A DNA stretch of 64,000 nt from assembly GCA_965263355.1 (NCBI GenBank), contig CBDHHL010000056.1:480001-544000 (forward strand), in the 5' to 3' direction. The translations under genes and the position numbers were made by a program. The DNA comes from Leptolyngbyaceae cyanobacterium (GTDB lineage Bacteria; Cyanobacteriota; Cyanobacteriia; Phormidesmidales; Phormidesmidaceae). The notes below the pieces were generated by a model. The model worked only from the letters and a program-made list of their open reading frames with translations, was not told the origin of the DNA and ran no database searches. This document shows, piece after piece, positions 13,730 to 48,972 of this stretch (positions are counted from its first letter, which is position 1; each line of letters starts with the position of its first letter).

Positions 13730-13781
13730 GCTTATAAGTCACCCAACAACAACTTTATAGTTACATGGGTTGCGCCTTAGT

Positions 13782-29625: not shown

Positions 29626-29772
29626 TTATGTCGCTGTAGGATGGCGCTTATTGCGAAATAAAATGTATCGACAAATCCAATAAACGTAGGTTTGCTCAGT
29701 CCGGTAAGAATAATGCTTTAGACGGATATGATCCCGAACTTGATCCAGGAGTTTTCTAGGACGCGTTTCCAT
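29626..29772 (-). pseudogene. intI: integron integrase N-terminal remnant (integron A)
   Basis: Manual translation METRPRKLLDQVRDHIRLKHYSYRTEQTYVYWICRYILFRNKRHPTAT* (48 aa, below the ORF-track cutoff); IntI N-terminal SAM-like signature. Confidence 0.9.
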
Positions 29773-29898
29773 TGATGATGGGTACAGAGCATATGTATCA
29801 TTTTTTACTCGCGTCCATGAATTTCTAATATGGTCAGGGGGTAACTATACTGAAACTTTCCATATATCTACCTAATATGAACGCACTATATGGACAGC

Positions 29899-29975
29899 TC
29901 GCAGTATAGTATGCCGATTTGGGTGGATAGGCTGCGAGTTCGCAGTATAGTATACCGATAAGGGGAGATAGACTG
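29899..29975 (+). repeat. direct repeat pair upstream of attI-A
   Basis: 36-nt units at 29899 and 29940 (41-nt period), 30/36 identical, starting tcgcagtatagtat. Confidence 0.8.
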
Positions 29976-29984
29976 AAAAAGTCG

Positions 29985-30003
29985 ATCTAATATTATGTTT
30001 CAC
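29985..30003 (+). other. attI-like site of integron A
   Basis: ATCTAAT-ATTAT-GTTTCAC; the GTT end is complementary (12/13) to the R'' end of the next attC (gctgcggtaaaac). Confidence 0.6.
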
Positions 30004-30056
30004 CGCAGCAATAGTACAAATGTTTGGTGCCATGTGATAAGATCTCGGAAGCTGCG

Positions 30057-30145
30057 GTAAAACAATTGCGCTGGAGCCGACAAACGACCGCTAGCCCAAC
30101 GGCGTCGTACTCGACGGCGTTTGCGGCTCAGCTTAATTATTAGAC
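30057..30145 (+). mobile_element. attC site A1 (R' mutated GTT to ATT)
   Basis: R'' GTAAAAC, L'' GCTGGAGC, L' GCTCAGC, R' ATTAGAC; the arms pair with the typical extrahelical base. Confidence 0.8.
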
Positions 30146-30232
30146 AGCTAAACCAGCAGCGTTGACGTCTCTTACCTGTTGCCCCCCTAAATTGAAGCTG
30201 AGTTAAGATTGTGGGAAATTTCTAGCACCGTA

Positions 30233-31186
30233 ATGACCAAGTTACCTAAACGTACTAAATCTCAAAAGATTGGTATAAGTGCTGCCGATCTACTCAGCTC
30301 CGTTCTTACTAAATTTTGTAATGTTATTCCTGTCCCTCAAGAGAGAGATCTAGGCATCGACTTTATTTGTGAAATTATGCAGGATGAGCACCCAACTGGA
30401 AAATTATTTAATATTCAATGCAAAGGAAAAGAAGAAGCCAAAGTAGAAAGTGATTCAATTCAAGTTCCTATTAAAGTTGCAACCCTCAATTATTGGTTGC
30501 TTCAACTAAATCCTACATTCTTGATTGTCGTTGATCGTCAAAACGATTATTTTTATTGGTCGTTCCCGCAAGATTTTCTTAGTTCACTTGATAAAAACTG
30601 GCAAGAACAAAAAACAGTCTCAATCCCAGTCCCTCTCCAAAATCGGTTTGGGCAAGTTATAGATATCTTACCCAGTCAAATTGTTTCAATAGTTAATTCA
30701 CATGCCTCTGTTACTCCTAAAAATGGTGATTATCTTGGAACATTGACACTTGGTAATGCTATAGATAGAGCAGCTATTGATTATGGATTACATGTGCTTC
30801 GTACACCTTTCCATCGTCCTTTTCAGTATATGGGGATGTCTATCTCTGATGCAGCAAGGGCAGTCAGCGGCAACACTAATAAAGTAGGCAACATTATCGT
30901 TGACTCTGAGCAAGCCCATATGCTGTTAGAGGCAGAAGGTAATTTTATTAATTATGTAGACATTGAATTAAAAAAGACTGCGCCTTGGAGTCTGAGTCGA
31001 CCGTTTGATTCTGAAGCAATCTTAGGAGTACTTAGTATTAACCCAGCTGAGTTGGAACTAGCCCGCAAACAGATACATTTTCACACCTATTATGATCACA
31101 AGAGAAAGTTAAAGATCGGTGTATCTTGTCAGTATGATGGTGCACCACTATCTGTAGGCTTTAGTAGCAAGTACTACAAGGCTTAA
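30233..31186 (+). CDS. DUF4365 domain protein (PD-(D/E)xK-like) with unknown C-terminal domain
   Basis: ERDLGIDFICE...FNIQCKG...TLNYW...PTFLIVVD; directly after attC A1; probable start at ATG 30233. Confidence 0.85.
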   Translation: MTKLPKRTKSQKIGISAADLLSSVLTKFCNVIPVPQERDLGIDFICEIMQDEHPTGKLFNIQCKGKEEAKVESDSIQVPIKVATLNYWLLQLNPTFLIVVDRQNDYFYWSFPQDFLSSLDKNWQEQKTVSIPVPLQNRFGQVIDILPSQIVSIVNSHASVTPKNGDYLGTLTLGNAIDRAAIDYGLHVLRTPFHRPFQYMGMSISDAARAVSGNTNKVGNIIVDSEQAHMLLEAEGNFINYVDIELKKTAPWSLSRPFDSEAILGVLSINPAELELARKQIHFHTYYDHKRKLKIGVSCQYDGAPLSVGFSSKYYKA

Positions 31187-31443
31187 AATAAGGGCTTAAT
31201 AGCTGATTCAGGAAGTTCGTGTGTCGCTAATAGCCATAAATCTCATGGAGTATAGGTTTTCACTGAACCAGGCTTCCAAAACTAAAAGCTTTTTTGACAA
31301 TGCTTTCAGGCATTTTACGAGCTAGACCTGCTTAGAACATAGATTGAGCCAAGTATAATTGATTTGATTTGGCCTCGCTCAGGTCAAATTGAGCATTTCT
31401 TCATTACAATGAGCATAAACAAAGCGTAGCTAAATAAAGGATA

Positions 31444-31686
31444 ATGACGTTACAAGACATACACAATCAGGCATTGCAGCTGTCCATTGGCGAGCGTTGG
31501 CGGTTAGTTCAGTCTTTGTTGCGTTCGATTCAACAAGAAACGCTGGCATTTAGTCTTCCACTTGCCGACACAAGTTCTTTGGCTGGTCTTGATCCTTGGA
31601 CTCAAAGCTTAGTGGGGGTCATTAAGTCGGAATCACAAAACTCCACAGAGTCCTACGTAGACTATTTGGAGGAGAAGTACAGTTGA
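31444..31686 (+). CDS. putative antitoxin
   Basis: QALQLSIGERWRLVQSLL ... YVDYLEEKYS; 4-nt overlap with the PIN gene. Confidence 0.8.
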   Translation: MTLQDIHNQALQLSIGERWRLVQSLLRSIQQETLAFSLPLADTSSLAGLDPWTQSLVGVIKSESQNSTESYVDYLEEKYS

Positions 31687-32099
31687 GACATGTATTATTT
31701 GACAGTGATGTTTTGCTCGATGTCTTGGCTCAACGACAACCATTTGTATTGGCTTCTGCCCAATCGTTAAATACAGTAGTCAAACCGCAAGTGAAAGGCT
31801 ATGTTTCAGGGCATGCAGTGACGAACATTTTTTATATCCTGCGTCGTCAAGTTGGTGGTGAAAAAGCTCGTGAGCTTCTATCAAAGCTATTGCAGCATCT
31901 TGAAGTAGCGAGTGTGACAGATGGAGTCATTAAAGCTGCCTTGGAAAGTTCTATGAAAGACTTTGAAGATGCGGTAACGAGTGAGGCTGCAAACGCCGCA
32001 GGAGTAGAAGTTATCGTAACTCGAAATAAATCCGATTTTACTGCCTCTGCCATTCCCGCATTGTTACCAGACGAGTTTCTAGCAATGTCATTAGAGTAA
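31683..32099 (+). CDS. PIN-domain toxin (VapC-like)
   Basis: VLFDSDVLLDVL, DFEDAV, IVTRNKSDF. Confidence 0.92.
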   Translation: MRHVLFDSDVLLDVLAQRQPFVLASAQSLNTVVKPQVKGYVSGHAVTNIFYILRRQVGGEKARELLSKLLQHLEVASVTDGVIKAALESSMKDFEDAVTSEAANAAGVEVIVTRNKSDFTASAIPALLPDEFLAMSLE

Positions 32100-32114
32100 G
32101 TCAATGATGTCGCC

Positions 32115-32201
32115 GTCTAACAATTCAAATGCAGCGGACGGTTGAGGACTTCTATATTTGTGTGTAAGGTTGCTTATCGCCGCTGATTTGAGTCGTTATC
32201 G
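32115..32201 (+). mobile_element. attC site A2
   Basis: R'' GTCTAAC, caaatgcagcggacg pairing with cgccgctgatttg, R' GTTATCG; 15 nt after the PIN stop. Confidence 0.88.
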
Positions 32202-32480
32202 AGAACAAATCCCAGCTAAATATTGTTTACGAGTCAAGGGGGCAAAATTTATGCTTCTTAGGCTCATGGATAGAATTTATCAGGAGGCTGGGTACCTGTA
32301 AGATGAGGTTATTCCTTGCTAAACGTTCCCTCATTTGCTCCTGACAGTTAACCAAAGCTTAGTGTCAGATATGAGAATTTCGCGCTTTTTTGTTGTTATT
32401 ATAGCGATCGCAACCGAGAACTTAATTGTACAATTGCACAAAATTTGTAAGGCTTAATCAACTTCATTAGCTAAAATCTT

Positions 32481-32972: not shown

Positions 32973-33078
32973 ATGCTAATGGACTAACACTCATCAAAAA
33001 ACAGTTGAATCAGGTCAAACCGGAATGAGACACTAGCATAGAGTGCATTCCGGTATTATCAGCTTGGGAAGGGCTGAA

Positions 33079-33538: not shown

Positions 33539-34066
33539 CTAGTTTTCTACAGGACGATACGAAATCCCTCCTTCATCGTCATCATAATATTCTTCCATGC
33601 CGACGGAGGCTAAAGACCTCTCCCTTGGACGTTGCGATGCAAATCCACGTAAAGTTTTAGCGGTTGAATCCGATGCCAGCAATGCAGCCCACTTAAACAG
33701 TCTTTTTACATTGAGGCCCATTTTCTCAGCCACATGGGAAATAACTGGTAGGTGCAACAGATTCTCGCGTAAATCTATGCGAAAGTCCTCAATTACATGT
33801 GCTAATAGGGCAATCTTCAATGAATTTTCATCACCATTTCGAATTGCAATTGTTGCAAACCGGCTACTAAAACCAAGGATTAAAGGTCTGATATCATCTG
33901 AAATGATATTCTTTATTTCTTTGGCTTCGGCGGCGGTAACAGAACTATATATTAGTGCAAGTTCTCTAAACTCGTTATCTAATTTTCCAGGAATTGTTTT
34001 CCCGTATCCGACCCACTTCATTTTATCAAAGGTGGCCAAGATTTCTAGAACTCTACTCTTACTCAT
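33539..34066 (-). CDS. putative immunity protein of the RHS toxin
   Basis: 175-aa AT-rich helical protein directly downstream of, and co-oriented with, the RHS gene. Confidence 0.65.
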   Translation of the reverse strand: MSKSRVLEILATFDKMKWVGYGKTIPGKLDNEFRELALIYSSVTAAEAKEIKNIISDDIRPLILGFSSRFATIAIRNGDENSLKIALLAHVIEDFRIDLRENLLHLPVISHVAEKMGLNVKRLFKWAALLASDSTAKTLRGFASQRPRERSLASVGMEEYYDDDEGGISYRPVEN

Positions 34067-34133
34067 TATTTTCGACTAAATTTAGACTTGATTGATAGCT
34101 TAGAAAGCAAAATTAATTAAATTCCAACATTTC

Positions 34134-34167
34134 GATGTACAGACGTTCCATGGAATGTCTGTACATC
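34134..34167. repeat. REP-like palindrome
   Basis: gatgtacagacgttccatggaatgtctgtacatc, a near-perfect palindrome. Confidence 0.75.
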
Positions 34168-34208
34168 ATCTATACTCTGGAATTTCTAATAGCTTGCTTC
34201 TCAATGCT

Positions 34209-37200
34209 CTATGGGCTCGTTGTACCAGTTGGTATTGCCCAACCATTGCGTATAGTATACCCAGCATCTTGTAACTGATTTAACTCTCTCCTATAAACTG
34301 TGTACTTGTATTTCTCACCGGGTGGCTTTTTCAAGGTTGACTTTTTAACTGGACTTACAAGCTTCACTGGTCTCCCTCCATCGATTGCACCTTGAAGCCA
34401 TGCATCGTTTACTTCAGGAGACCAGCCCTTCTTTGTCGTAACATTGAGCCAATGAAATCCTTGCTCAGGACCAACTCTAGAGGTATCGTCGAGACGCCCA
34501 ATAATAGAAGTCATACTGCTTGTTGCTGATTCTTGATACCATTCCCAACCAAGTATGGCCTGATTAGGATTTTTTTTGAATTTTTGATGATATCTTTCGT
34601 TAAATTCGCCGAAGGAGTTTATCAATCGTTTTGATGTGCCAATCTTATTGGCTACGACTGATCTTCGCTGAAAAGAACGTCTAAGATTACTGCGAGCACC
34701 GAGTATTCCCAAGCCAGACAACCCAGTCTGAAGCAGATCTCTCCAGGGGATTTCACCATTACAGCTTTCCCTCCAATTTCGATAGGCCCGCAGACCCGAT
34801 TCCCCTGTTTGATAAATATTGGCTCCTACATTTGTTAATTGAGCAAGACGAATACCATTCCTTGCCCATCGATTAAACTTAACAAAATCAGTTCCACGCT
34901 TTAACGATTGAGACCGATTTACCCAGGATGCGACTTTACCCACCTTGTCTGCATTTCTAACAGCGCCTGCTCCTCCAGGAATTGGTAGCAATAATGCTCC
35001 CACATCAGCCGTAATACCTACCCCATCAATCGCTGCATTTTTCCAGTCTCTTCTGCGTAAATTCACTCCTAATGATGTCACACCAACCCCTAGAGAGAGG
35101 AGATCCCAGCCTGATTCAACATAATTTCCAGTAGGATCAACATAATTCGGAGAACTATTGAAAACATACCGATAGAGATTCGCATCCCCAGCAGCAAATC
35201 CAATCGGATCTTCACTGATAAAGCGTCCTACACCAGAGTCGTAATAGCGTGCCCGATAGAAATACTGCCCACTCTCTTGGTCAAGCTCCCGTCCTGTATA
35301 TCCAAACCTAAAGTAAGCCGTAGTATTACTCTGATTTGTAACCTGTCCAAAAGAATCATAGGCGATGTGATTCAGCACCGTACCCTGGTTATTAATCACA
35401 TCCCGCACACTACCTTGATGGTCCGTCAAGGCCCAACGAGTTTCCCTGTTGGCAGTTTCTTCTGCTAGTATCTGGTCCACCTGCGGACCATGCAGATAGC
35501 GATAGGTCTGATTACCGTCACTGTCAAAGACGAGGGCAATATGGTCACCGTCGTAGACAAATCGTTCTTCTGTTGGCGCTTCTACACCTTCACCATCAGC
35601 ATCCACCACCTTAGCAATACGTCGATCATAAGCATCATAGGTGTAGGCTACTTCTCTGGTAACGCTACCATCACTACTTGTGGTCACCATTGCCGTCAGA
35701 CGATTGCGATGATCCCAGGTGTAGTCAGTGACTTCGTCCGTAGCGATGTCAACTCGGCGAGTACGGTTACCTTCGTTATCGTATTCGTAAGTATATGTAC
35801 CATCGCTTAGCAAACGATTATGGTCTCCAGTTGTATTGCTTGTGCGGTTACCAGTAGCGTCGTAGCTATACGCTTCATCATCTTGATGGTTGTAGTCAGC
35901 ACTCGTTAGCTCACTACGGTTGTTATAGCGATAGTCACTGATACCATCTGGCGTGACTAGCTGGGTTAACCGATCAGCGGCATCGTAGGTAAACCCATAG
36001 TTAGCCAGAATATCTGTACCGTGCTGATGCGTGAGACTTGTTGGCCTGCCTGCTGCATCGTAACGGTAGGCTGTTTCAGCTACAGTCTGGGTTCCTGCCA
36101 AGTCACTAAAGCGGCTTACCCCGGTCATCTGACTGGCCGCATCGTAGGCCATGTCCACTCGTTTCTCGGCTATCCCATTACCACTCTGGGTGACTTGGGT
36201 AACCCGATTCAGCAAATCATAGGCAAAGGTTTCCACACCAACTTGAATGCCATCAATACTGTCAGTAACACTTGTCAGATTATTGGCCTCATCATAGCCA
36301 TAGGTAAAGACGACATGGGATACACCAGGCGTATTGCTGTTATCAACCTCAATTAGTCGTCCGGCTAAATCATAGTCATAGGTGTAGACAGCATCGGGAT
36401 CACTAAGAGACTTAAGCTGGCTGGCCACATCATACCCATAAGTAATTGTGCGTATTAGGTTGTTATCATCATCTAACCATTGCTCAGTGTCTAATCGATT
36501 GAGGGCGTCATAAGCAAAGGTTTGGGTCCGACCATTGCGATCAACTCGCAATATTAGGTTACTGGCTTCGTCGTAGTCATAGGTGCGAGTCAGATCCACA
36601 CCATCCACCGTAATCGTCTCGGTCGTTAACAGGTCTCGCTCATCATAGGTGTAGCTTGTAACATTATCCGACGCATCCGTAATCGAGAGAATGTTACCCT
36701 CGTTATCGTAGGTAGTTGTTGTTGCCTGTTCCAGAGCATCAATGGTCTTGGTTTGACGGTTGAGTTTGTCATACTCATGGCGAGTTTGGTTGCCTAAGGT
36801 GTCGGTAAGGGATGTCAGGTTACCAACACTGTCATACTCATAGGTGAGTGTATGACCAAGTGCATTTGTTGTACGGGTCAAGAAGTCGCGACCATCGTAA
36901 TCGTAACGTGTTGTGCGGCCTAGCTCATCGGTGACTAAAACAACATTGCCGACTTCATCGTAACGAGTTTCTGTTGTGGCCCCATAGGCATCAATCGTAC
37001 GTGTCTGACGGTTGAGATTGTCATAGCTGTAGTTCACCACTCGTCCTAATTCGCCAGCCACTTGGATGAGATTTCCAAAGGCATCGTACCTGTAGTTCGT
37101 GCTATGGTTTAGCGGATCGGTGACTTGGGTTAAACGATTTAAGCTATCGTAAGTATAGGTGGTCTCCCGACCCAGTTCATCAATGGTGGAAAGCATATTA

Positions 37201-40200
37201 CCCACCCCGTCATAGCGATAGCGCATCTCCCCATCCAACGCATTGGTCGTCAAGACTAACCGATTGCGCACATCATAGGTGTAGCGTGTTTCATTCCCCC
37301 GCTGGTCAACAGAAACTGCAATATTCCCCACCTCGTCATAACTAGTTTGGGCTCGATTGCCAGCTGCATCCTCAATCTCAATCAAACGGCTGAGATGATC
37401 ATAGCGGTACCGTGTAATATGACCATTGCGGTCTCTCACAGCAACTAGATTATCCGCCGCATCATAGTCATAGTCTGTAAAGCGCTCTGTAGCATCTCGA
37501 ATTAAGATTAATCGTTGCCGTGCATCATAGAAATAGTTAGTGCGATTGCCTGCCGCATCCTCAATCATTGTGAGATTGTTATCCGCATCATACTGGTAAG
37601 TGATGGTGCCTCCCTCTGCATCGGTTTCCGCGATCAGTCGACTGCGTGCATCATGCTGATAGGTAGTCGTCTCTCCACGGGCATTGGTCATGGCTACCAA
37701 ATTACCTGCCTGGTCGTACACATAATCTGTTGTTTGGTCATCTGCATCCAACTGCTGGGTAAGGCGGTTTAGGGGATCATAAGCAAAGGATGTGGTATTT
37801 CCCCTGGCATCGGTCGTCTTAATCAGATTACCCGCCGCATCATAACCAAATAAGGTAACTGGTGCCTGCTGATCACCTGCGCCATCCGGGTCCGCATCCA
37901 CCTGCCGGATGAGACGGTTCATCACATCGTACTCATAGGTAGTGACGTTGTCATTCTCATCAATAAATTGAGTCAGATTACCGACTGTATCATAGCTAAA
38001 CAACTGGGTGGCTTCATCGGCAGTCCCCTTTGCCAAGGTGAGTTTGACCAACCGTCCAAGGTTATCGTAGTCATAGTCTTTCACCCGACCCAAATCATCA
38101 GTTTCAAAATCAACTAGGCCTGCATCAGTGTAGGTGTAGGTGGTGACAATATCATCACTGCCACCTTCTTCGCCAATCACATGACGCATTTCCAGCGTAT
38201 TTCCGTTTGTGCTATCTACTGTAAACAGAGTAGTACTGCCCAGCTCATCAGTAACTGAAGTGAGTTGACTAAAAGTATTGTCATAAGTGAACAACTTGGC
38301 ATTGACTAGCTCTCGTCGGTCGATAGCAGTTAACGGTGTCTCTGGTTCATCGGCAGGGTCTTCTGATAAGACACTCAGCTGATTAAGAAGAATATAACTA
38401 TTTTGTCGATCATGAAGCAGAACATCCGGTTCCTCGTCTAAGTTGAAATTACCAGTTAACAACGCATCTATATCAGATGGAATGGCATAGTCCTGATAGC
38501 GTTGACTATCTTGAAAATCAAATTGTCCGGTTTCATTGCCCAACAGTACTGATAGGATTGAATTGGGATATTTTCCAGCGGAAAGAATCAAATCGGCATG
38601 GCGATCATTATTAATATCGGCAATAGCAAGATTAGGTTCATCATTACTACTATCAAAACGGGTGATATTTTGAAGCTGTTGCTCACTAAACGAACCATCC
38701 CCACGACCTAAGAAGGTTTGCAAATAATAGCGATTGCTATCGTCTCCATCTTCATAGGTCAATGCGATATCGAGACTGCTATCACTATTTAGGTCTGCAA
38801 GCTTTAACCGAAAGTGATAGAGGAAAGTCTGTGTATCAGAACCTGGTGAAATTTGCTGAGCAAAGCTTTGGGTAAATGAACCGTCAATACTTCCCAACAA
38901 AGCAGCAAGGAAAACATCATTGTTATTGGTATCGTTCTCTAAATTCCCTCGACGCAAGTACACCAGATCATCTAAACCATCATGATTGATATCGGCAATT
39001 TGGGTAATAGATTCCCCATCATGATAGTCATTTGCATCATTGAGACTCACAACCGACGATGACGCTTCTTGGAAGTCACCTGTTTCATCACCCAGCCAAA
39101 TTACTAGTTCTGTAGTGTTGTCGTTACCCGCAACAAGATATGAAAAGTCAAGATTGCGATCGCCATTGAAATCCCCTACATTCAGATGCATAATTTGACT
39201 GGCAAAGAGCCATGGTGTTCCAACGGCTAGGGTTCTATTCTCATCAGTAATAATCGGTACAATCTGACTGAGTTCGGTCTGATAGTCATAGGTTGCTGCC
39301 AGAATATCTAATATCCCATCCTGGTTAAAGTCACCAGTAGCAACACTTTTAACAGTAGCGTCTAATTCAAATGCAATGGGTGTTACAAATGTGGCATCAC
39401 CATTATTAATTTGAAGAAAAACAGAATTCAGAGAATAATCTATCGACAGAAGATCGTCAAATCCATCACTATTGAAATCAGCAACCATGAGTTGTTCACG
39501 ACCTGGGGTCTCAAATGATTGAACAGTTCTATCAGGGAGGGGTAGCGTTAACTCAAAATCACCATTTCTTTGATTTAAGAGAATTGAAATGAATCCAGCT
39601 AACCCATTGCTACTAGCAACTGCAATGTCTGCAAAACCATCTTGGTTAAAGTCTTCAATAGTCAGTGTTACAGGCCATTCACCAACAGCATAATTGGCTG
39701 ACTCAATGAATTCTCCATTGCCTTGATTCAGGAGTACTGACAAGCTACTGTCCGATTCATTGGCTGTCAGAATGTCTAGGTATCCGTCGTTATTAATGTC
39801 CTTTAACTGCAATGAATCAGGTGCTGACTGAAACGAATCTCCATAGTCCCCAATGGTATAATCAGTTGCCAGTGTAAATTCAGTATTCGTCTCAGTCGAA
39901 TTAAGTAAGACAGATACTGTATCAGTCTCACCATTTACAGTAACGATATCGAGCTGATTATCACCATTAAGATCAGCTACCTTAACCTGGTGAGGTTGTT
40001 GACCAACAACATAATGTTCTACTTGAGTCAACGGTATTTCTGCGTTTCCAAAGAGCACTGTAACCGTTGTGTTATTCGTTTGGGTCGAGATAATATCATC
40101 AAACCCATCAGCATCTAAGTCCGCAATGGTGAAAGCGTTAGTTGCGTTGAGTGTTCCATCTGCACTGACTGTATTATGCGTGATAGGAGTAGAAAAGTTG

Positions 40201-43200
40201 CGATCGCCCTGATTGAGGAAAACCTCAATGCCGCCAACATTATTGGGGGTATTGATTTCAGCCTGTCTGACAATATCAATTTCACCATCACCGTTGACAT
40301 CGGCAAGTGCCATATGACCAATGTCATTGCTTTCGTTCAATGTTTCAAGATCGACCTGATCACTCAGGGCACGCTCTGGATTACCGAAGATAATAACCGG
40401 TTCGGATTTGGTATTGTAGAGGATGTCCTTGAAACCATCGTTATCGAAATCCGTGACCAGAATGTTATTTCCACTCTGATCATAATCGCCGCTAAGTCTG
40501 TTATCTCTAAGAGATACTTGTTCTACAAAGGTGCCATCACCATTGCCAAAGGCAACCGCTATTCCCCCTCTGTTGCTGCCAGAATCATTGACAATAATAT
40601 CTTGATTACCATCCCCATCTACATCATCAACGGCAATCGCGGCACCACTATGGGGCTGATTCTCAAAGGAAATACTATTACCGGCGCTAAAGCCCCCTTG
40701 GGCATCTCCAAAGAACAAAGAAATATGGGACGAGTAAGGAGTATCATTAGAACTCACCGACACTAAATCCAGATAGCCATCGTTATTTAAATCTTTGGCC
40801 ATTACTCGTTTAGGGGCCACAACTGGGAAATAGCCAGAATTACCAAATAGCTGAGAAGTAGCACTATCTGCATCAGAGCTACCTTGATTAACGATTCCAC
40901 TGGCAGAATAACCACTCTCCGACAGTTCATCCACCATACGAACTAGGTTGCCACGTTCGTCATATTCAAATGTAGTTGACTTGTTACGTCCAGTTGACAG
41001 ATTTTCTACTAGATTAGCGCTATTGCGTTGAACTGTATATTGAGTACCGACCTGGTCACGAACAGATACTGCTTGACCTGCCACATCTAAAGCCGTTATT
41101 TTTACTTGGCCACGTCCATCGCTGTAAGTAACTTGTGAACTATCGGGTGCATCAGGTAGTTTAGGTGCCACCAGAGGATCTTCAGAGGTTCTTTCTGGTT
41201 TATAAAGACCTTCTACCTGAGGAGGGTTCACCTTAATAATACGCCCATCTTTACCAATCGCTTGTTTGGCACGACCGGCAAAGTCATAAACAGCTTTTTC
41301 CTGATAGCCTCGCTTATCGATTTCACTGACCATATGACTTTTGTCATCGTAAATAAATTGACGACTAGTGCTATCAGGATCAGTAATATGCGTTAAATTA
41401 CCGTTAATGTCATACGTTAATAGCGTTTCACGATTAGCTGGATCAATAATCTTGGAGATACGTTCGTTAGTATATTCAAACCGGGTAGAGAGACCAACTG
41501 GATCAATAATCTCTGTAAGTTGTCCAATTGCATTATAAACATGCTGGGTTTGATTACCATTACGATCCGTAATCGAGACTAGGCGATTATTACTGTCAAA
41601 TGCATAAACTGTTTGTTCGTTAGTATATTCAAACCGGGTAGAGAGACCAACTGGATCAATAATCTCTGTAAGTTGTCCAATTGCATTATAAACATGCTGG
41701 GTTTGATTACCATTACGATCCGTAATCGAGACTAGGCGATTATTACTGTCAAATGCATAAACTGTTTGTTCTTTATCAATCCGCTGGAAGGTACCATTCT
41801 CAAGCTTTTTGAGTGTTGAAAAGTCACCGGGGGGAGCCACATATTCACCCTCGTTTTCAAATACAATTTCTGAGCCATTCCCATCAATGATGAGAACAGA
41901 CCCATCAGCATTTTCAATCAGCTCCTGAACACCTGCAATCCCCCAACCATTTCCAAGCTGGCTGCGAGTGCCATTAACATGCACAATGTTATTGGTAATA
42001 GTGCTAGAACGCCCTGAGAAACGACCATCCGACAATGCATAGATACCCGCTTGCAGATCATATTCATAGACACCAGACGCCAAGTCCTTCAGATTGGCTT
42101 GAATGGCAGGTTTTGCAGAAATACGGCCTCCAGTTTGAGTGCGTGATGGTACATTCCAAAAATGTTCACCACCCTCAAGACCATATTTTCCACCTTCATA
42201 ACCAGGTACTTCATATTCAAAATCACCCTGTTTGAAGGAAAGCTTAGAAATAACCCTAAACGTACTTTGTCTTGTACCATTGGCAGCAAATGTGAGTGGA
42301 ATATCAACATTAAAGTGAACAATAGGACTTGGATCTGCCCGCAGTGAATCGTAGGCTAGTGTTACTCCCCTAGAAATTCCTAACGACTGATATGAAACCA
42401 ATTCATGGGTTTCAATGATACCACCTGAAGCCAGATTTACATTCGAGGTGAAGGGAGCATCTTCTTCGTTGGCACCACAATAATGATCAGGATTACGTGG
42501 ATCACCACCACCTAAGTTAATTAATCCTCCAAGCGGCATAAAGAAATGCCATGAACTGTTGCGAATACCACCTTCAATTGTTTCAACAGAGTTACCATCC
42601 TCTGAAACAATACCAGTCCCCACTATTTCAAAATCCCCTGTAGTGGGGTTAATGGACCATAGCTCCATCTCCATACCGGCTGACCAACCTGCCCGGTTGG
42701 GTAGAGTTAATTGTGCCGGTATGTCAAATGCCATTTCCCCTGGCTGAATGGTGACCACCAGATCAGGAGATAGCCCTTCGGGTAATACAGCTGGTGTTAA
42801 ATCTGTAGGTACCTCTGAAATAGTGAATTGCCCGTCAAAAGGATTCCCTTCACGATCACTGAGCGAGTTTGCCGCTATAAAGACTTCAGCACCAAGACTG
42901 GCATTGGTAACGGTAATATTGTCCTGACTATCGATAGTTTGTTCATTATTAATAATATCTAAAGCGGGCAAGTAAATCGGACGCTCAATGACATTGTTCA
43001 CCCCTGCATAAAGATTGTGGCCTAGCACCAGGTCAATCTTCTCGGCTACATAGGGAAATACTTCTCCCGTAGGACTCTCATACTCGGTACCGTAAAACTT
43101 AAGCGTATCCGCTGCACCTGCAGGGCTAAAGGAAAGGTCATGGCCCATAAACTGACTCCAAGCTAGCATAAAGCCAGTCCCCCCTTGAGCGTCGGGAATC

Positions 43201-46200
43201 GGGTCTGTCTGGGCAAAGAGAGCATTACTAATATCACGGGTATTGGGTCGATTCTCTCCAGCTAACGAGCGGATGCCATCCCCATACTCCTGGGTATAGT
43301 TCACACCCATCAGGTCTCCTGGTGTTCCCTGCCCTGGTTGACCGTGATTGCTGCCATCAATAGCACCATACTCAGTTACGGTCTCACTGGCCACGGTTCC
43401 CGCTGCCTCAGATGCTGTAGGCGCTCCCTGACTAGAGAAGACATACTCTGGCAGCGTCGTAATATCCGTATTGCGCTGAATCAAACTGGCCAACGTTGTT
43501 CCACGAATGTCATCTAGTTCCGCTTGGGTAAACTGACCATTCTCATACCAGAAACGGTCTCCATCCCGCAGTCGGATAAATTGGTCTGCAATGATGGCCT
43601 GGAACAGTTCACCCACCATCGCACCAGAAACATGATCTTCAGCCAGTCCACCGACAATCACATCAATGTCATCGACCTTACCATAGAGCTGCTCTAGTAC
43701 TGTCTGTACCGTTATATTGCTGGTAATCTCAGCAAAGCTGGTTACTGGAGCTAAACCTATATCTACACGGGCCTGGTTATAGTCCGGTAAACCCACATCC
43801 CTGCCCCGTTCAATATCCACAGCAGCCAAGTCAATGCCCCCTGCCCCTGGCGGTCCAAATAAGGTGTTACGTAGTTCATCAATCACCTTGGTATCGATAG
43901 CCTCAGCGGACTGGGCATAGAGGCCACGTAGTATAGAATCAATACCGTACTGGTGAATAATTTCAGGGTTAAATGTACTTTCTCTTAACGATACTGACGG
44001 TAGGAGATCACCATTCTCATTTACCAACAGAAACTCGCTAAAGCTCTGGGTATGGCCCATACGGAAGGCAGCAGCAGAGAACAAATGACTAATAGCAGGA
44101 TCAACGTTCTCGTTATAACCGCTGTAAGTCTCTAGAGCATCACTACCAATCAACAACGGTAGATACTCACCATAGGTAATATGCTGAATCTGCGCCGCGA
44201 TCAGCTTTCTCACCCGGTTATAAATCTCATCTCCAGACAACTCTGGATTGGCAGCTTGAATATCAGTAGCCAGTCGGTTATGCTCTCTCACAAAGACTGT
44301 ATGCATGGCCGTCAGACCAATATTCTCATTGGCTCGGACATCGCCTGTAGCAAAGAGCATAGCCGGATCATTCTGACTACGGTTGCTGTTAGGCAATGGT
44401 CCATCGGGGAAAAAGTCGGTGTTGTTGAGGGGCAACAAATTATTATCAGAGACTTTTAGCTGCCCTGTACCATCTAGTGTTCGTAAGGCATTGGCAGTGC
44501 GAGTGTCATTACCATAGACCATACTGGCATTCATGTAGGCACTGACCAGATTGGGATGTCGCAGCGGATTACTAGGATCAGTACCAGTAGTCCCATCAAA
44601 GGTAGTTCGACGTAGATCAATTACCTGAGTACCCGTAAAGAACGGATCAAAGACGAGGTCACCAAGGGGTACAGCAATGTCTAGCTCATCAGTGGGAAAG
44701 CTGGTTTCTGGAATCGTCAGAGTAAAGTAGCCCTCAGAATCAGTGACTGTTTGAAGCCGACCCAACTCAATAGGCAGATTTGCTAGGGGTGTACCGTGGG
44801 TATCAAGTACGTGACCACTAATGCGCGTGGTGGTGATTGGGTCGGGTACAACAGTAAGGGTAACAGTCTGCTCAACAGTTTCAGCTCCATCAGTAGCGAT
44901 AACGGTAAAGGTATAAGAGCCAATATCGTGGGGGGTAGGTGCAAAGGACAAATTACCTGCACCATTGAGAACACCGGGAGGTAGTTCTGTATCGGTACGC
45001 AATGAATAGGTAACGCGGTCCCCGTCAGGGTCTGAAGCGTTGAGGGGAATCTCGATGTGCTGCCCTGGTAACACCTCAATTGGGTCAATCGGTTCAAAAA
45101 CCGGAGCCTGATTTGGAGCACCTACCAGCACTTGAGGCTTAAAGACAAGCTGCCATTCTTCCGGGTTATTGAAAGTAATTTCAACTGCATCAGAAAGAGC
45201 ACCCGGCGCTAGCCCACCTGAACGAATGGCATTGTAGAAATTGACATAAGGATTTCCATCACTATCTGTACCTGATACGGTCTCAAGACTAACGCTATCA
45301 GGCAGAGCGTCAAACACCACCACTGCCTGACGGCTAATGGATGTATCACTTGTATTATGTAATTGCAGTTGAGCAGTGTACTCACCTGTCTGGGCATTAA
45401 AGCGAATCTGGCTAAAGACAGGCTCAATAACACTGCTCGCCGACAAATTCTCAAGAGATAGCTCATCGCCCAAAGTGACCACCGTATAAGTATGTTCAAG
45501 CTGGATAGCTTCAGTTCCTTCTGGGTCAATGGTATTAGTTAACTGGCTAATGTGAATTTGACTGCCCGTATCACCATCTTGGTTCAGCAGTTGGAAAATT
45601 AGGTGACCATCGGTTTCTGTTTCCAGGGAGGTGAGATCAATCTCCACATACTGACCGTCATAGGTTACTAGTCCAGGGGTGAAGTCAGCAGTTTTTCCTT
45701 TCAAGGAGAACACTGGAGTACCAGGGGTGCCATTATCTAGCAATGTCTGACTCGGATCACTAGTGGAGACCAAGTACACTGCCAGGGTGTCTTTACTCGC
45801 AGGAGTATCGTTTGTTAAATCAAAGGCCGCATCCAAAGCAAACCTGAGCGTACGACTGCCTTGGCTTTGCCCCAACGTCACTGGTGCCTGAGCCTGGGTA
45901 ACAAAACTATTTCCCTCAGCTAGCAGAATCTTATTTTCTGATGTTGCTGCCCAGCCACTGGTATCGGTAGCCCCAATCACAAAAGCACTATCCGCCACCT
46001 CAAAGTCAATCACCTGTTCAGTGACATTGCCTGCTATATCAGTGAAACGAACTGTAAGTTGATGTGTGCCATCTGCTAAGGGCGACTCCTGAAGTAACCG
46101 ATCTAAGGTCTCCGTTACCTCTGTATCCACCGCTGTGCCACCATCTAGGATGGTGCTCAGGGTGCCTGCTTCATTAGTACTGCCTAGCAAATGCACCATA

Positions 46201-47138
46201 TTGCTGTGGATACCACTGACTAGGGGACTTGTCAGCGACAGTTCAGCAGCCGTACGATCTAGGATCATGCTAACTTTTACTGAATCGGAGACATTGCCCA
46301 GAACATCTTCAGCGGTGACTACAATGCTGTAGGCGTTATCTACCAAGGGATGGCCTACTAGTGTTGTTAGGAGGGACTCATCGAGGATGAAACTACCATC
46401 TGGCTGCACCTGATTCGTAATATCAAGGGTAGCCGCACCAACACGGGCACTAACTCGGGCAATCTCACTTTGATCACTGATGCTACCTACCAGAACAGGT
46501 GTCTGTGTAATTCCGTCGGTGGCATCTTGCCCCGTGTCCTCCTTCAATGCTAGAGATAGCGTGGGAGCAACACCATCAGAGCGAGTATCATGGTCTAAAT
46601 TAATGGGCTGATGGTCTACTTGCTGATCGACACCAAATTCTGTCGTACCAGTAGGAGAATTATTAGTTGGTTTATGAATATCAACATGCCCTATCTTACT
46701 CTCTGGGATAAATGGTTCGTTGCTATCGAGTAGGTTATCCATCGCTTCTAACCCAACAGTAGCTAAAAAGTCTCTAAAGTCTGATTGACCTATTAAAGGA
46801 TCAATACTTCGATCCGGGAAGGACTGAGAGGGACTCAATAAATTAGAGGATAATTGCAATGAGGCAAAAGAGTTTTTATTGCTCAGCAAATCTTTTTCGT
46901 TGTTTGATTCATTTAGCAATGACAGCTCTCTGATACCGAGTTCCATCCACTGACCTGGAGCCCCTACACCGCTAAACTGACCACCAGCAAACGGATTCAA
47001 TAGGTGAGCAAGCCACTCCCCTGACCAGACTGGACTACTACTATTAATAGGATTATTAGCAAATCCAGAACCAGATGATGCAAATAGATTAGACATAGCA
47101 AAATAGAGACACCACAAACGATGACCCACCGTAAACAA
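34209..47138 (-). CDS. giant RHS/YD-repeat protein with Ig-like domains, heme peroxidase, FG-GAP repeats and C-terminal toxin
   Basis: 4309-aa ORF (likely start ATG 47096); GDVRANEN and AAFRMGH peroxidase motifs; D-x-N-x-DG-x-x-D repeats; YD repeats; RHS core YTGRELD..ARYYD..GRFISEDP..PNYVDPTG. Confidence 0.95.
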   Translation of the reverse strand: MFTVGHRLWCLYFAMSNLFASSGSGFANNPINSSSPVWSGEWLAHLLNPFAGGQFSGVGAPGQWMELGIRELSLLNESNNEKDLLSNKNSFASLQLSSNLLSPSQSFPDRSIDPLIGQSDFRDFLATVGLEAMDNLLDSNEPFIPESKIGHVDIHKPTNNSPTGTTEFGVDQQVDHQPINLDHDTRSDGVAPTLSLALKEDTGQDATDGITQTPVLVGSISDQSEIARVSARVGAATLDITNQVQPDGSFILDESLLTTLVGHPLVDNAYSIVVTAEDVLGNVSDSVKVSMILDRTAAELSLTSPLVSGIHSNMVHLLGSTNEAGTLSTILDGGTAVDTEVTETLDRLLQESPLADGTHQLTVRFTDIAGNVTEQVIDFEVADSAFVIGATDTSGWAATSENKILLAEGNSFVTQAQAPVTLGQSQGSRTLRFALDAAFDLTNDTPASKDTLAVYLVSTSDPSQTLLDNGTPGTPVFSLKGKTADFTPGLVTYDGQYVEIDLTSLETETDGHLIFQLLNQDGDTGSQIHISQLTNTIDPEGTEAIQLEHTYTVVTLGDELSLENLSASSVIEPVFSQIRFNAQTGEYTAQLQLHNTSDTSISRQAVVVFDALPDSVSLETVSGTDSDGNPYVNFYNAIRSGGLAPGALSDAVEITFNNPEEWQLVFKPQVLVGAPNQAPVFEPIDPIEVLPGQHIEIPLNASDPDGDRVTYSLRTDTELPPGVLNGAGNLSFAPTPHDIGSYTFTVIATDGAETVEQTVTLTVVPDPITTTRISGHVLDTHGTPLANLPIELGRLQTVTDSEGYFTLTIPETSFPTDELDIAVPLGDLVFDPFFTGTQVIDLRRTTFDGTTGTDPSNPLRHPNLVSAYMNASMVYGNDTRTANALRTLDGTGQLKVSDNNLLPLNNTDFFPDGPLPNSNRSQNDPAMLFATGDVRANENIGLTAMHTVFVREHNRLATDIQAANPELSGDEIYNRVRKLIAAQIQHITYGEYLPLLIGSDALETYSGYNENVDPAISHLFSAAAFRMGHTQSFSEFLLVNENGDLLPSVSLRESTFNPEIIHQYGIDSILRGLYAQSAEAIDTKVIDELRNTLFGPPGAGGIDLAAVDIERGRDVGLPDYNQARVDIGLAPVTSFAEITSNITVQTVLEQLYGKVDDIDVIVGGLAEDHVSGAMVGELFQAIIADQFIRLRDGDRFWYENGQFTQAELDDIRGTTLASLIQRNTDITTLPEYVFSSQGAPTASEAAGTVASETVTEYGAIDGSNHGQPGQGTPGDLMGVNYTQEYGDGIRSLAGENRPNTRDISNALFAQTDPIPDAQGGTGFMLAWSQFMGHDLSFSPAGAADTLKFYGTEYESPTGEVFPYVAEKIDLVLGHNLYAGVNNVIERPIYLPALDIINNEQTIDSQDNITVTNASLGAEVFIAANSLSDREGNPFDGQFTISEVPTDLTPAVLPEGLSPDLVVTIQPGEMAFDIPAQLTLPNRAGWSAGMEMELWSINPTTGDFEIVGTGIVSEDGNSVETIEGGIRNSSWHFFMPLGGLINLGGGDPRNPDHYCGANEEDAPFTSNVNLASGGIIETHELVSYQSLGISRGVTLAYDSLRADPSPIVHFNVDIPLTFAANGTRQSTFRVISKLSFKQGDFEYEVPGYEGGKYGLEGGEHFWNVPSRTQTGGRISAKPAIQANLKDLASGVYEYDLQAGIYALSDGRFSGRSSTITNNIVHVNGTRSQLGNGWGIAGVQELIENADGSVLIIDGNGSEIVFENEGEYVAPPGDFSTLKKLENGTFQRIDKEQTVYAFDSNNRLVSITDRNGNQTQHVYNAIGQLTEIIDPVGLSTRFEYTNEQTVYAFDSNNRLVSITDRNGNQTQHVYNAIGQLTEIIDPVGLSTRFEYTNERISKIIDPANRETLLTYDINGNLTHITDPDSTSRQFIYDDKSHMVSEIDKRGYQEKAVYDFAGRAKQAIGKDGRIIKVNPPQVEGLYKPERTSEDPLVAPKLPDAPDSSQVTYSDGRGQVKITALDVAGQAVSVRDQVGTQYTVQRNSANLVENLSTGRNKSTTFEYDERGNLVRMVDELSESGYSASGIVNQGSSDADSATSQLFGNSGYFPVVAPKRVMAKDLNNDGYLDLVSVSSNDTPYSSHISLFFGDAQGGFSAGNSISFENQPHSGAAIAVDDVDGDGNQDIIVNDSGSNRGGIAVAFGNGDGTFVEQVSLRDNRLSGDYDQSGNNILVTDFDNDGFKDILYNTKSEPVIIFGNPERALSDQVDLETLNESNDIGHMALADVNGDGEIDIVRQAEINTPNNVGGIEVFLNQGDRNFSTPITHNTVSADGTLNATNAFTIADLDADGFDDIISTQTNNTTVTVLFGNAEIPLTQVEHYVVGQQPHQVKVADLNGDNQLDIVTVNGETDTVSVLLNSTETNTEFTLATDYTIGDYGDSFQSAPDSLQLKDINNDGYLDILTANESDSSLSVLLNQGNGEFIESANYAVGEWPVTLTIEDFNQDGFADIAVASSNGLAGFISILLNQRNGDFELTLPLPDRTVQSFETPGREQLMVADFNSDGFDDLLSIDYSLNSVFLQINNGDATFVTPIAFELDATVKSVATGDFNQDGILDILAATYDYQTELSQIVPIITDENRTLAVGTPWLFASQIMHLNVGDFNGDRNLDFSYLVAGNDNTTELVIWLGDETGDFQEASSSVVSLNDANDYHDGESITQIADINHDGLDDLVYLRRGNLENDTNNNDVFLAALLGSIDGSFTQSFAQQISPGSDTQTFLYHFRLKLADLNSDSSLDIALTYEDGDDSNRYYLQTFLGRGDGSFSEQQLQNITRFDSSNDEPNLAIADINNDRHADLILSAGKYPNSILSVLLGNETGQFDFQDSQRYQDYAIPSDIDALLTGNFNLDEEPDVLLHDRQNSYILLNQLSVLSEDPADEPETPLTAIDRRELVNAKLFTYDNTFSQLTSVTDELGSTTLFTVDSTNGNTLEMRHVIGEEGGSDDIVTTYTYTDAGLVDFETDDLGRVKDYDYDNLGRLVKLTLAKGTADEATQLFSYDTVGNLTQFIDENDNVTTYEYDVMNRLIRQVDADPDGAGDQQAPVTLFGYDAAGNLIKTTDARGNTTSFAYDPLNRLTQQLDADDQTTDYVYDQAGNLVAMTNARGETTTYQHDARSRLIAETDAEGGTITYQYDADNNLTMIEDAAGNRTNYFYDARQRLILIRDATERFTDYDYDAADNLVAVRDRNGHITRYRYDHLSRLIEIEDAAGNRAQTSYDEVGNIAVSVDQRGNETRYTYDVRNRLVLTTNALDGEMRYRYDGVGNMLSTIDELGRETTYTYDSLNRLTQVTDPLNHSTNYRYDAFGNLIQVAGELGRVVNYSYDNLNRQTRTIDAYGATTETRYDEVGNVVLVTDELGRTTRYDYDGRDFLTRTTNALGHTLTYEYDSVGNLTSLTDTLGNQTRHEYDKLNRQTKTIDALEQATTTTYDNEGNILSITDASDNVTSYTYDERDLLTTETITVDGVDLTRTYDYDEASNLILRVDRNGRTQTFAYDALNRLDTEQWLDDDNNLIRTITYGYDVASQLKSLSDPDAVYTYDYDLAGRLIEVDNSNTPGVSHVVFTYGYDEANNLTSVTDSIDGIQVGVETFAYDLLNRVTQVTQSGNGIAEKRVDMAYDAASQMTGVSRFSDLAGTQTVAETAYRYDAAGRPTSLTHQHGTDILANYGFTYDAADRLTQLVTPDGISDYRYNNRSELTSADYNHQDDEAYSYDATGNRTSNTTGDHNRLLSDGTYTYEYDNEGNRTRRVDIATDEVTDYTWDHRNRLTAMVTTSSDGSVTREVAYTYDAYDRRIAKVVDADGEGVEAPTEERFVYDGDHIALVFDSDGNQTYRYLHGPQVDQILAEETANRETRWALTDHQGSVRDVINNQGTVLNHIAYDSFGQVTNQSNTTAYFRFGYTGRELDQESGQYFYRARYYDSGVGRFISEDPIGFAAGDANLYRYVFNSSPNYVDPTGNYVESGWDLLSLGVGVTSLGVNLRRRDWKNAAIDGVGITADVGALLLPIPGGAGAVRNADKVGKVASWVNRSQSLKRGTDFVKFNRWARNGIRLAQLTNVGANIYQTGESGLRAYRNWRESCNGEIPWRDLLQTGLSGLGILGARSNLRRSFQRRSVVANKIGTSKRLINSFGEFNERYHQKFKKNPNQAILGWEWYQESATSSMTSIIGRLDDTSRVGPEQGFHWLNVTTKKGWSPEVNDAWLQGAIDGGRPVKLVSPVKKSTLKKPPGEKYKYTVYRRELNQLQDAGYTIRNGWAIPTGTTSP
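41462..41771. repeat. exact 153-bp tandem duplication inside the RHS gene
   Basis: 41462-41614 appears identical to 41615-41767; the 51-aa EQTVYAFDSNNRL...RFEYTN occurs twice. Confidence 0.95.
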
Positions 47139-47813
47139 TGGGCAACCAGAAGAGAATAAGTATTGGAAAAAGAACTGTCGAGAGAGCCTGGCATCTATGC
47201 TCTAAAGAATGCCCTCAGACTCATCGTTATCGTAAAGTTTATGTCCTGTTTTCCGATGAGCAGATGTACGTAAATTTGGTCACCCAAAAAATATCTTCAC
47301 AAGAGATTTATCGAACCCTTTACTATGCTGTTCGATGCTTAATGATTGAGTAAAGATGAGAGTTAATAAACAGTCTTTGATAGCTTGAATTGAAATGCTT
47401 ACATGGTTTTGGTGTTTCTCAGATTTTGCACTTGGTAAAGAGGCGTCAGCCCACTTTGGATTCATAGTCGCAAGACTAATTGAATCAAAACTCGCTAAAG
47501 GGTTCAAGGGAGGGGTAAAAGCTGGATATATAGTTTTACGACCAACTTTGCCGCTTTAGCGACAGCTCTCAAACCCTCGCTGGGCTTTAGCCTTACAACT
47601 GAATTAATGCAAGATCTGAGCCTTTTACGAACAGCGTCGCTGTTCGCTAAAACTGAAAGAAACACAATTGTCATTTTTGAGGCGACAATGCTCTCGCTTT
47701 AAGGCTAATTAGTTTATGTTTCTTAGGAGTATTTTTATTATTTATTTCAATTCTTACTAAAAAACTTGGGCATGATAAGTAAACGAGAAAGAATGATTTG
47801 AACATTTTGACAC

Positions 47814-48290
47814 ATGCCAGTAGTGAAAGCAATCGATACCGTCATACAAGAGATTCTTGCCACAGCTCGGTCCTATTCTGGATGTCCAACCTTCACAGGT
47901 GATTACTGGCTTAATGAGCAGCAATTTAATTACCCCACCTGGGTGTTACTCCTAGATGCTCAAGGGACTGAAGTATCTCCTTCCCCGATTTTCAGAGGAG
48001 TGAATTGGCTCAAGATTAATGATCTGCACTCACCTCTTGCCATCTTTCCAGATGCAAATGGCTATGTGGATTCTCAAAAACTACTGGAATGTCTTAATGT
48101 GTATATGTCAACAATTGGAGGATACCAACAGTCTCATGTTAATGCGCCGTTGATTCAAATAGCATTTGTGCAAAACATCTGTTATCTTCTACCCGCAATA
48201 CCTGTAGATAATAAAGCAGGTAAACGTATTCATTATCTCATAGCTGATGGTAACAATAACTGGAAATGTCTTATACGAAATCCTGACTGA
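47814..48290 (+). CDS. hypothetical protein
   Basis: 158-aa ATG-started ORF with no recognised motif. Confidence 0.6.
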   Translation: MPVVKAIDTVIQEILATARSYSGCPTFTGDYWLNEQQFNYPTWVLLLDAQGTEVSPSPIFRGVNWLKINDLHSPLAIFPDANGYVDSQKLLECLNVYMSTIGGYQQSHVNAPLIQIAFVQNICYLLPAIPVDNKAGKRIHYLIADGNNNWKCLIRNPD

Positions 48291-48410
48291 TAGTATCTGG
48301 TATCAAAGGGTATCGACAAGGGATTCCCCTATAGAATTGTCCATTTTTAATCGGGTTTAATAAATTCGAATTTTGATAGAACTATAAGAAAACACAGGAT
48401 GCGGTTAGGG

Positions 48411-48703
48411 CTAACCGCATCCACATTCAGATCTAAGTCTAATTGCAGAACGGTACGGTACAGAAACAGCAAGGCACAGAGTGCTTGATTTTGGGTGGAC
48501 GCGGTAACCTTTTTGGGAACGGCTAAATGAGTCAAAACTGCCTCAATTTCTGGGCCTCCCATATTTCTAGGATGCTGCCAATTATGAAATCGAATGTATC
48601 GCTTAATCCAATTGATGTAACTTTTTTCGGTTCGATACGAGTAATGTTTTACACGAATAGCATCACGAACAGCTTCTAGTAGAGTCCTAGGCTTAGATAC
48701 CGT
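48411..48703 (-). pseudogene. intI: integron integrase N-terminal remnant (integron B)
   Basis: KPRTLLEAVRDAIRVKHYSYRTEKSYINWIKRYIRFH..HPRNMG..EIEAVLTHLA...ASTQNQALCALLFLYRTVL..DAV; catalytic domain absent (ORF track 48347-48751). Confidence 0.92.
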
Positions 48704-48794
48704 GTTAATTAGTACGTAAAAACACTGAAACTCCTGTGTATCAGTTATCACTTAGCAGTTCACTTAAACTATTTAAGGTACTTTAAAGCTTTCT

Positions 48795-48813
48795 GGATAA
48801 CTTATAGTTGTAG
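48795..48813 (+). other. attI-like site of integron B
   Basis: GGATAAC-TTATA-GTTGTAG; GTTGTAG is complementary at 6/7 to R'' CAACAAC of the next attC. Confidence 0.6.
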
Positions 48814-48863
48814 TGACCCGATTTAAATGTTATGGCTTGGGAACCCTTTAGTACAATGGGTCT

Positions 48864-48946
48864 CAACAACATTTCGTTGGAACCGACACTCCGTTAACCG
48901 CCTGACGTCGTTTAGACGGAAGTGCGGTTCAACTACACCGTTAGCC
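48864..48946 (+). mobile_element. attC site B1
   Basis: R'' CAACAAC, gttggaaccgacactccg pairing with cggaagtgcggttcaac, R' GTTAGCC. Confidence 0.88.
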
Positions 48947-48972
48947 ATCTTTAATCACTTGCACTTAATTGC

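Follow-up and report, generated by a model that had tools for sequence, protein, structure and literature searches.

The stretch of DNA analysed here (64,000 nucleotides of contig CBDHHL010000056.1 from a Leptolyngbyaceae cyanobacterium, hereafter the window) carries two decayed integron platforms about 19 kb apart, designated A and B. At each of them the 5' end of an integrase gene (intI) is followed by an attI site, a gene-less first cassette and an attC site. An earlier sequence-only reading had given both loci this layout, which holds from the intI stub to the first attC, whereas platform B has one attC only and its cargo is a truncated, inverted npdG cassette. Both are real remnants: the stubs match integrase models and an attC covariance model finds the three sites that had been named. 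We hold it to be highly probable that these are two unrelated chromosomal integrons, with intI cut down to its 5' end and attI and the first cassettes kept, whose cassettes would likely move only by way of an intact IntI elsewhere.

Platform A is bounded on the left by murD (28224..29603, + strand). Its integrase remnant, intI-A (29626..29772, - strand), encodes 48 amino acids comprising the start of the SAM-like domain (about 45 codons) and aligns with positions 1-39 of 85 of PF13495 only (E 4e-12), in keeping with the truncation originally described. The extent of intI-B needed revision: given as 48411-48703, its homology in fact spans 48373-48703 (- strand), or about 110 codons, and the frame covers positions 1-83 of 85 of PF13495 (E 2e-29). 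Its start codon is ACG where its intact relative reads ATG. This platform had been called invisible to the open reading frame (ORF) track, which is correct insofar as intI-B has no ATG, but an in-frame GTG ORF (48347-48751) is mechanically listed, so the term is too strict. In frame, the homology of intI-B runs on to 48373 and there meets a copy (48273..48372, + strand) of a miniature inverted-repeat transposable element (MITE) of about 113 bp. A perfect hairpin within intI-B (48397-48422), a natural near-palindrome made perfect with its 2-nt loop inverted, has the sequence features that mark a template switch. Among NCBIfam models, those for integron integrases match each stub best, with positions 1-39 (A) and 1-106 (B) of 315 covered; both thus lack the catalytic domain, as had been stated. 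No further IntI piece was found within the 64-kb window, and a full IntI with catalytic domain is absent at both platforms.

The two stubs share 26 of 42 residues. In a tree of 28 IntI N-termini, intI-A joins L145 (95% identity over 43 columns, support 99/96), while intI-B falls with L146 and L148 and is 86% identical over 96 columns to the intact IntI of L146. Since they group with different intact IntI types, the platforms are independent, which bears out the view that no recent duplication links them.

The attI-A region (29773..29999, + strand) contains direct repeats (29896-29934 and 29937-29975), an L box (29985-29991), a 5-nt spacer and a crossover between G29997 and the following TT; it is 85.8% identical to L145 over 29634-29992, with the direct repeats kept. 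The attI-B core (48795..48809, + strand) likewise has an L box, a 5-nt spacer and a crossover between G48807 and TT, and of the direct repeats that L146 has upstream it keeps one only. At each platform the match to the intact counterpart (L145 or L146) stops at the attI GTT, beyond which different cassettes follow. Three attC sites lie on the + strand, namely attC-A1 (30057..30145), attC-A2 (32115..32201; canonical GTCTAAC ... GTT) and attC-B (48864..48946); for the fold of the bottom strand, z is -4.4, -2.3 and -3.5, respectively. By our own models all three have the R and L boxes, the extrahelical bases and the bottom-strand hairpin expected of attC. The R' of attC-A1 reads ATT rather than GTT; decay was considered as an explanation of this ATT and rejected, since it is found in seven of the ten A1 copies with a readable R' (GTT in three) and in a tandem pair. 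The start of each first cassette complements its own R'' side (A1 12/13, B1 11/13).

The earlier reading had staked its claim on an attC covariance model matching these three intervals, and a model trained on 20 attC sites of other cyanobacterial genomes (R1) matches exactly them. With filters off, R1 finds only three sites in 64 kb: attC-A1 (E 3e-8, 42.4 bits), attC-A2 (E 1.8e-11, 55.4 bits; a weak match also exists on the other strand) and attC-B (E 7.5e-7, 36.9 bits). In the R1 training set 89% of cells pair and 72 are compensated, a number reached in 0/500 shuffles. A second model (R2), built from only 11 proteobacterial mobile-integron attC sites, ranks attC-A2 first and attC-B second in the window. 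Rfam at its gathering threshold gave no match in the window, and a plain RYYYAAC...GTTRRRY scan of it returned unrelated palindromes only. A pattern detector for attC was noisy (5-7 matches per shuffled window), missed attC-A2 and was used solely for collecting training sites. As to a Pc promoter directed at the array, three weak sites occur at A against 1.7 expected, and none at B.

Array A consists of two cassettes. The gene-less A1 (29998..30139, + strand) has 13-nt complementary ends and only 67 nt before its attC. Cassette A2 (30140..32195, + strand) carries a DUF4365 restriction-endonuclease-like gene (30209-31186), which by itself forms a single-gene cassette in Microcoleus (L056), followed by a probable antitoxin gene (31444-31686) and a PIN toxin gene (31683-32099). 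Over 1990 nt (30134-32122) A2 is 97.8% identical to locus L253 of Leptolyngbya sp. PCC 7375, against 79% for murD there, and it has therefore moved horizontally; identity this high across species also means that the A2 body was acquired recently. The immediate neighbour of this cassette at L253 is the 3' half of another intI. The attC interior of this copy (G003:C5:7966820) differs and diverges right after the R'' box, as in a swapped or hybrid attC. The array ends at the attC-A2 crossover, where it is joined to the 3' remnant of a chromosomal Uma2-like gene (32196..32370, + strand; L349, L350). The fusion point lies inside the gene, one base off GAT in L350. Integrase action at a secondary site is the likely cause of the join; a 4-nt microhomology explains it too.

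Platform B holds the gene-less cassette B1 (48808..48940, + strand), which is 91.7% identical over 156 nt to L270 and has homologs behind three attI types in four genomes; both gene-less cassettes, A1 and B1, recur behind different attI types. A LexA box in B1 was considered and dropped, as it is not conserved in homologs. B1 contains the family motif GTTA-N2-4-CTTGGGAA-N-CC, which is common to several different gene-less first cassettes (window 48822-48840; L081, L268, L269, L276, L279-L282, L289) and is present in 16/150 genomes, a few of these by chance (a reversed control gave three matches). Beyond attC-B lies the remnant of cassette B2 (48941..49669, - strand), an inverted npdG-like oxidoreductase gene that has lost its own attC, is split by a repeat at about 49228-49368 and is cut by a half MITE (49658-49741). 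In L341 and L343, too, sequence homologous to B2 begins at the crossover base, and it is preceded there by ends resembling attI and attC. With two attC sites and no C-terminal IntI domain, platform A falls within the definition of an attC cluster without an integron integrase (CALIN); platform B, with one, fits the single-site equivalent (SALIN). The formation of such elements by cassette insertion at a genomic GWT (attG) does not apply here, both arrays beginning at a real attI.

Cassette A1 deserves separate treatment as a candidate promoter cassette. Like promoter cassettes, it is a gene-less body bounded by attI and attC, with its own attC. It bears a LexA-like box (30013-30026) and an extended -10 made up of a TG (30035-30036) and a -10-like TAAGAT (30038-30043). 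Copies of A1 were recovered by DNA search from 10/150 genomes, by pattern from 8/172 (one of them new) and from four metagenome loci, giving 17 copies with that of the window. By eye, 13 of the 17 follow an attI-like site and four follow an attC, and their 13-nt complementary ends vary together. Every copy keeps a box resembling RGTACNNNDGTWCB, the cyanobacterial LexA site (PMC3091678), 11 nt before the -10 hexamer, which is TAAAAT in 12/17 and in most copies is preceded by TG. L302 has an exact box, and that sequence lies about 24 nt before a glutathione transferase-like gene. Two exact boxes are found in the lexA promoters of all five relatives, and in four of the four recA promoters read (locus L324 is left out of this count) the box has a mismatch at the same position as the single mismatch in A1. 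Upstream of intI, a LexA box with at most one mismatch is found at 5/29 loci (platform A, two mismatches; platform B, none).

We consider it rather probable that A1 is a promoter cassette, while its control by LexA is a tentative proposal that falls a little short of probable. Several observations weigh against these proposals. The 18 one-mismatch LexA boxes in the window are background (18.4 expected), the conserved GT of the right half of the box is GC in 6/17 copies (two mismatches), and the A1 pattern was picked post hoc, matches 3/60 shuffled windows and, having been used to collect some of the copies, enforced the motif in those. Blanco et al. moreover state that promoters of gene-less cassettes could not be identified in silico. 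As proposed, A1 would drive the next cassette from a promoter under LexA control. In the literature searched no paper dealt with integrons in this family or described a cassette with a LexA box, a search that did not cover supplementary cassette lists, which could hold A1-like cases.

The murD gene also fixes the setting. MurD is 91% identical to that of L001 and 88% to those of Adonisia turfae and Leptolyngbya sp. PCC 7375, and by this protein the window organism is placed as a Leptothoe/Adonisia-like cyanobacterium. Collinearity with the closest relative, L001, extends over about 11 kb up to 29610, 7 nt past the murD stop. None of 80 murD loci has an IntI match and none of the 16 closest has an attC match; platform A is therefore strain-specific.

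Between the platforms lies a rearrangement hot spot (RHS) locus (33539..47138, - strand) encoding a protein of 4309 amino acids with Ig, haem peroxidase, FG-GAP and RHS repeats, together with a candidate immunity gene (33539-34066). We infer toxin and immunity roles from this layout, the C-terminus having no family match. Within the RHS gene a perfect 153-bp tandem repeat (41462-41767) is skipped by the contigs of all three runs covering the region and is probably an artefact of the window assembly. The platforms had been said to bracket the RHS locus. It does lie between them, but it is not cassette cargo and a link to the platforms finds no support: it is on the strand opposite to the arrays, no attC is near it, array A ends in the Uma2 gene about 2 kb before it, and the separating DNA (32197-33368) is ordinary chromosomal DNA in PCC 7375. 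The bracketing looks incidental, and we propose that it came about because the region is variable and strain-specific.

Stubs of this kind are a family-wide phenomenon. An intact IntI was searched against 81 genomes, of which 64 matched. Our tally is drawn from the 150 matches listed, two of which were dropped as a non-integron recombinase; 89 weaker ones lie outside it. The remaining 148 represent 133 loci in 58 genomes, and among these 133 are 42 near-full copies, 61 5'-only, 19 3'-only, eight middle pieces and three with both ends. Again among the matches listed, 31/58 genomes have more than one IntI locus and 18/58 have a near-full copy plus a remnant. For closer inspection 72 partial loci were hand-chosen (52 picked as 5', 20 as 3' or middle). 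The 65 with contig on both sides comprise 40 5'-only loci, 10 internal deletions, eight 3'-only, five middle and two near full. An attC on the expected side and strand accompanies 21/33 5'-only loci whose flank is 1.4 kb or longer (four of the 21 rest on R1 training sites only) and 0/6 middle loci. The intI breakpoints are scattered, with internal deletions, insertion sequence (IS) ends and repeats among them, and no fixed, integrase-made breakpoint was seen by eye, without a statistic, in the junctions of the 72 loci. Of five close genomes, three have, at several loci, regions resembling attI-A but with no intI match.

Two further features of the family were noted. In G004, two intI stubs of different types (L095, L096) are cut by the same IS-like end. 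Behind many intI of the family lie a conserved non-coding stretch and a gene of 80-110 amino acids (L088:1590-2103, L134, L135, L146, L150, L151, L154, L158, L206, L211 and others), which has no Pfam or NCBIfam match and one weak SymR match (E 0.03). This module is found away from intI as well (L010, L015, L019) and is absent from the window.

Other explanations of the two platforms can be set against these data. One, that the stubs derive from non-integron tyrosine recombinases and that the attC-like hairpins are fortuitous, draws on the facts that PF13495 is not exclusive to IntI and that the diagnostic C-terminal insertion of IntI is absent from the stubs. Its probability is negligible, as the attC model and the grouping of the stubs have already refuted it on sequence grounds: the remnants, for which a grouping with non-integron recombinases had been named as the thing to check, instead group with intact integron IntI of relatives, being 95% and 86% identical to full-length proteins that sit beside homologous attI regions, and the attC sites score at E-values of 1e-6 or better. 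It is unlikely that platform B (48273-49728) moved in as a composite, carried between two MITE copies in inverted orientation. The outer end of each MITE is intact and points inward, and the left copy abuts the cut of intI-B as the right half copy abuts that of B2; however, the outer flanks (TTA versus CAA) show no target duplication, MITEs gather in dispensable DNA, and insertion with adjacent deletion gives the same picture. Three copies of this MITE family lie in the 64-kb window, and two related genomes yield 35-36 matches each. Still less probable, indeed improbable, is it that the platforms are the ends of one RHS-carrying island, or that IntI excises the RHS locus as a giant cassette from attC-A2 to attC-B. 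All att sites are co-oriented, making excision of 32196-48940 formally possible, and relatives lack the whole region beside murD. The intI of the two platforms are of unrelated types, however, the R'' of attC-B is complementary to the beginning of B1 and not to the sequence after A2, the DNA between array A and the RHS locus is ordinary chromosome in PCC 7375, and the contig joints listed for runs X1-X3 (large mixed assemblies of one study, possibly the source of the window) include no 32195-48941 joint. A shared motif at both intI cut ends was also discarded as an island boundary, being MITE interior at B. A joint of 29999 to 48814 was likewise not accepted as the trace of an attI x attI event deleting the RHS locus, since three of the four letters between differ from B1.

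More finely balanced is whether anything still acts on the platforms. Four loci of PCC 7375 carry a gene-less cassette of 98.5-100% identity, two of them in tandem copies, and only one of the four has an intI within the 11-12 kb examined, the other three having none; action in trans is therefore supported there. In runs X1 and X3 a contig joins an attI-A-type site to a B1-like body, with four other letters, at a further locus, and loose contig ends at 29723, 29802 and 29806 suggest further copies resembling intI-A. Of the earlier interpretation, two independent integrase-dead platforms are supported, and the idea that an intact IntI serves them in trans draws its support from comparison only; for the window platforms themselves such service, judged from sequence comparison, is about evenly balanced. 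On the other side of the scale, two of those four loci in PCC 7375 have the same left flank, and a single segmental duplication may account for them, the extra copies in X1-X3 could be another strain's, and remnants are all that 26/58 related genomes contain among the matches listed (many being incomplete assemblies). The 5'/3' tally carries no contig-end filter and excludes the 89 weaker matches, and the R2 E-values are weak (0.056, 0.37), with attC-A1 missed.

These points bear on a further explanation, in which the platforms have the origin proposed here but are frozen relics, nothing acting on them now and the cargo being kept by drift or by the addictive A2 toxin-antitoxin pair. We take this seriously while leaning against it. 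Both arrays are cut on the right (the Uma2 fusion, the MITE cut), the attI-B repeats and the intI-B ATG are lost, B2 is a pseudogene, and intact intI was seen in relatives, none being seen for the window organism within the 64 kb covered. Furthermore, no joint of an excised cassette circle is among the contig joints listed for X1-X3, where, since contigs drop rare variants, such circles would not appear. Against it stand the recent acquisition of the A2 body, as judged from its identity across species, and the intactness of attI-A and both first attC.

Under our preferred reading of two unrelated integrons, each platform would have arrived whole, been filled by normal attI x attC recombination and then lost its integrase in place, at a MITE edge in the case of B and by plain deletion next to murD in that of A. 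We propose that the 5' end of intI survives because it is tied to attI and to the promoter region that keeps the cargo expressed. The platforms would no longer recombine by themselves, and for their cassettes to move, an intact IntI from another place in the cell would likely have to act on them; the complete attI of A perhaps makes it the better substrate for such action in trans, and the shortened attI of B the poorer one. A bolder and rather doubtful extension is a distributed integron, in which one or a few intact integrases serve many scattered intI-less attI sites and tiny, highly mobile gene-less cassettes in first position act as plug-in regulators, A1, with its ATT attC, being LexA-controlled. 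If that were true, any cassette downstream of an inserted A1 would come under SOS control, which here means a toxin-antitoxin pair along with a gene of nuclease fold.

Several features nearby were recorded alongside. An Amidase_3 fragment (49777-50193), with an intact-looking homolog in G005, represents further decay to the right of platform B. A 158-amino-acid ORF (47814-48290) weakly matches an oligonucleotide cyclase model (E 1e-5, 83/332 positions) and is perhaps a fragment of a defence gene. Dispersed repeats at 47418-47731, 49228-49370, 34098-34202 and 24088-24146 are an IS-like end or members of MITE families, of which relatives contain many copies. Intergenic regions at 13741-13877, 15318-15390 and 17935-18048 have inverted ends, two of the ATTTAACCC type, and the attC model has no match there.

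The new elements are the candidate regulated promoter cassette and, across the family, the scattered 5' stubs and orphan attI sites. In the literature searched, cyanobacterial integrons receive little description, whereas the genomes covered here have many of them, and cassettes pass from one species to another. A repressor-controlled promoter on a cassette, if true, would extend promoter cassettes from constitutive to regulated ones.

Among known systems, platform B resembles the MITE-flanked class 1 integrons reportedly described by Gillings et al. in 2009, in being a piece of integron between two MITE copies; unlike them, it has no target duplication at its outer ends and one of its MITEs is half a copy. 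Both platforms are akin to sedentary integrons with inactivated intI, in which the gene is lost by deletion or stop while attI, a short array and the divergent intI/attI layout are kept. A general survey predicted 43-46% of integrases to be inactive (Cambray et al., PMC3108266), and in Xanthomonas intI has been deleted from sedentary chromosomal integrons (bioRxiv 10.1101/2025.06.18.660453, which also summarises Gillings et al.), so decay itself is ordinary. Xanthomonas, however, has essentially one platform, at ilvD, whereas here there are several IntI types and many platforms per genome at unrelated, strain-specific loci. With the CALINs and SALINs (Cury et al., PMC4889954; Loot et al., bioRxiv 10.1101/2022.09.11.507474) the platforms share attC sites (two at A, one at B) with no detectable integrase, but both retain attI and a 5' intI stub. 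Cury et al. (PMC4889954) report pseudogenes with the IntI C-terminal profile near 15/279 CALINs, a profile that 5'-only stubs, having no C-terminal region, are unable to match. As such stubs are about three times as frequent as 3'-only ones in this family (among the matches listed) and go unseen in a C-terminal-profile search, some CALINs and SALINs taken to have always been without an integrase may be decayed integrons. Finally, A1 is like the promoter cassettes of Vibrionaceae and Treponema (bioRxiv 10.1101/2023.11.21.568050, 10.1101/427781) in being short and ORF-less, with an attC, often in first position and as the proposed driver of downstream genes. It differs in the brevity of its pre-attC body and in its LexA-like box, and its activity is predicted from sequence where theirs was measured; the Vibrionaceae paper (bioRxiv 10.1101/2023.11.21.568050) does not mention 'LexA', and in the available part of the Treponema paper (bioRxiv 10.1101/427781) LexA concerns the integrase promoter.

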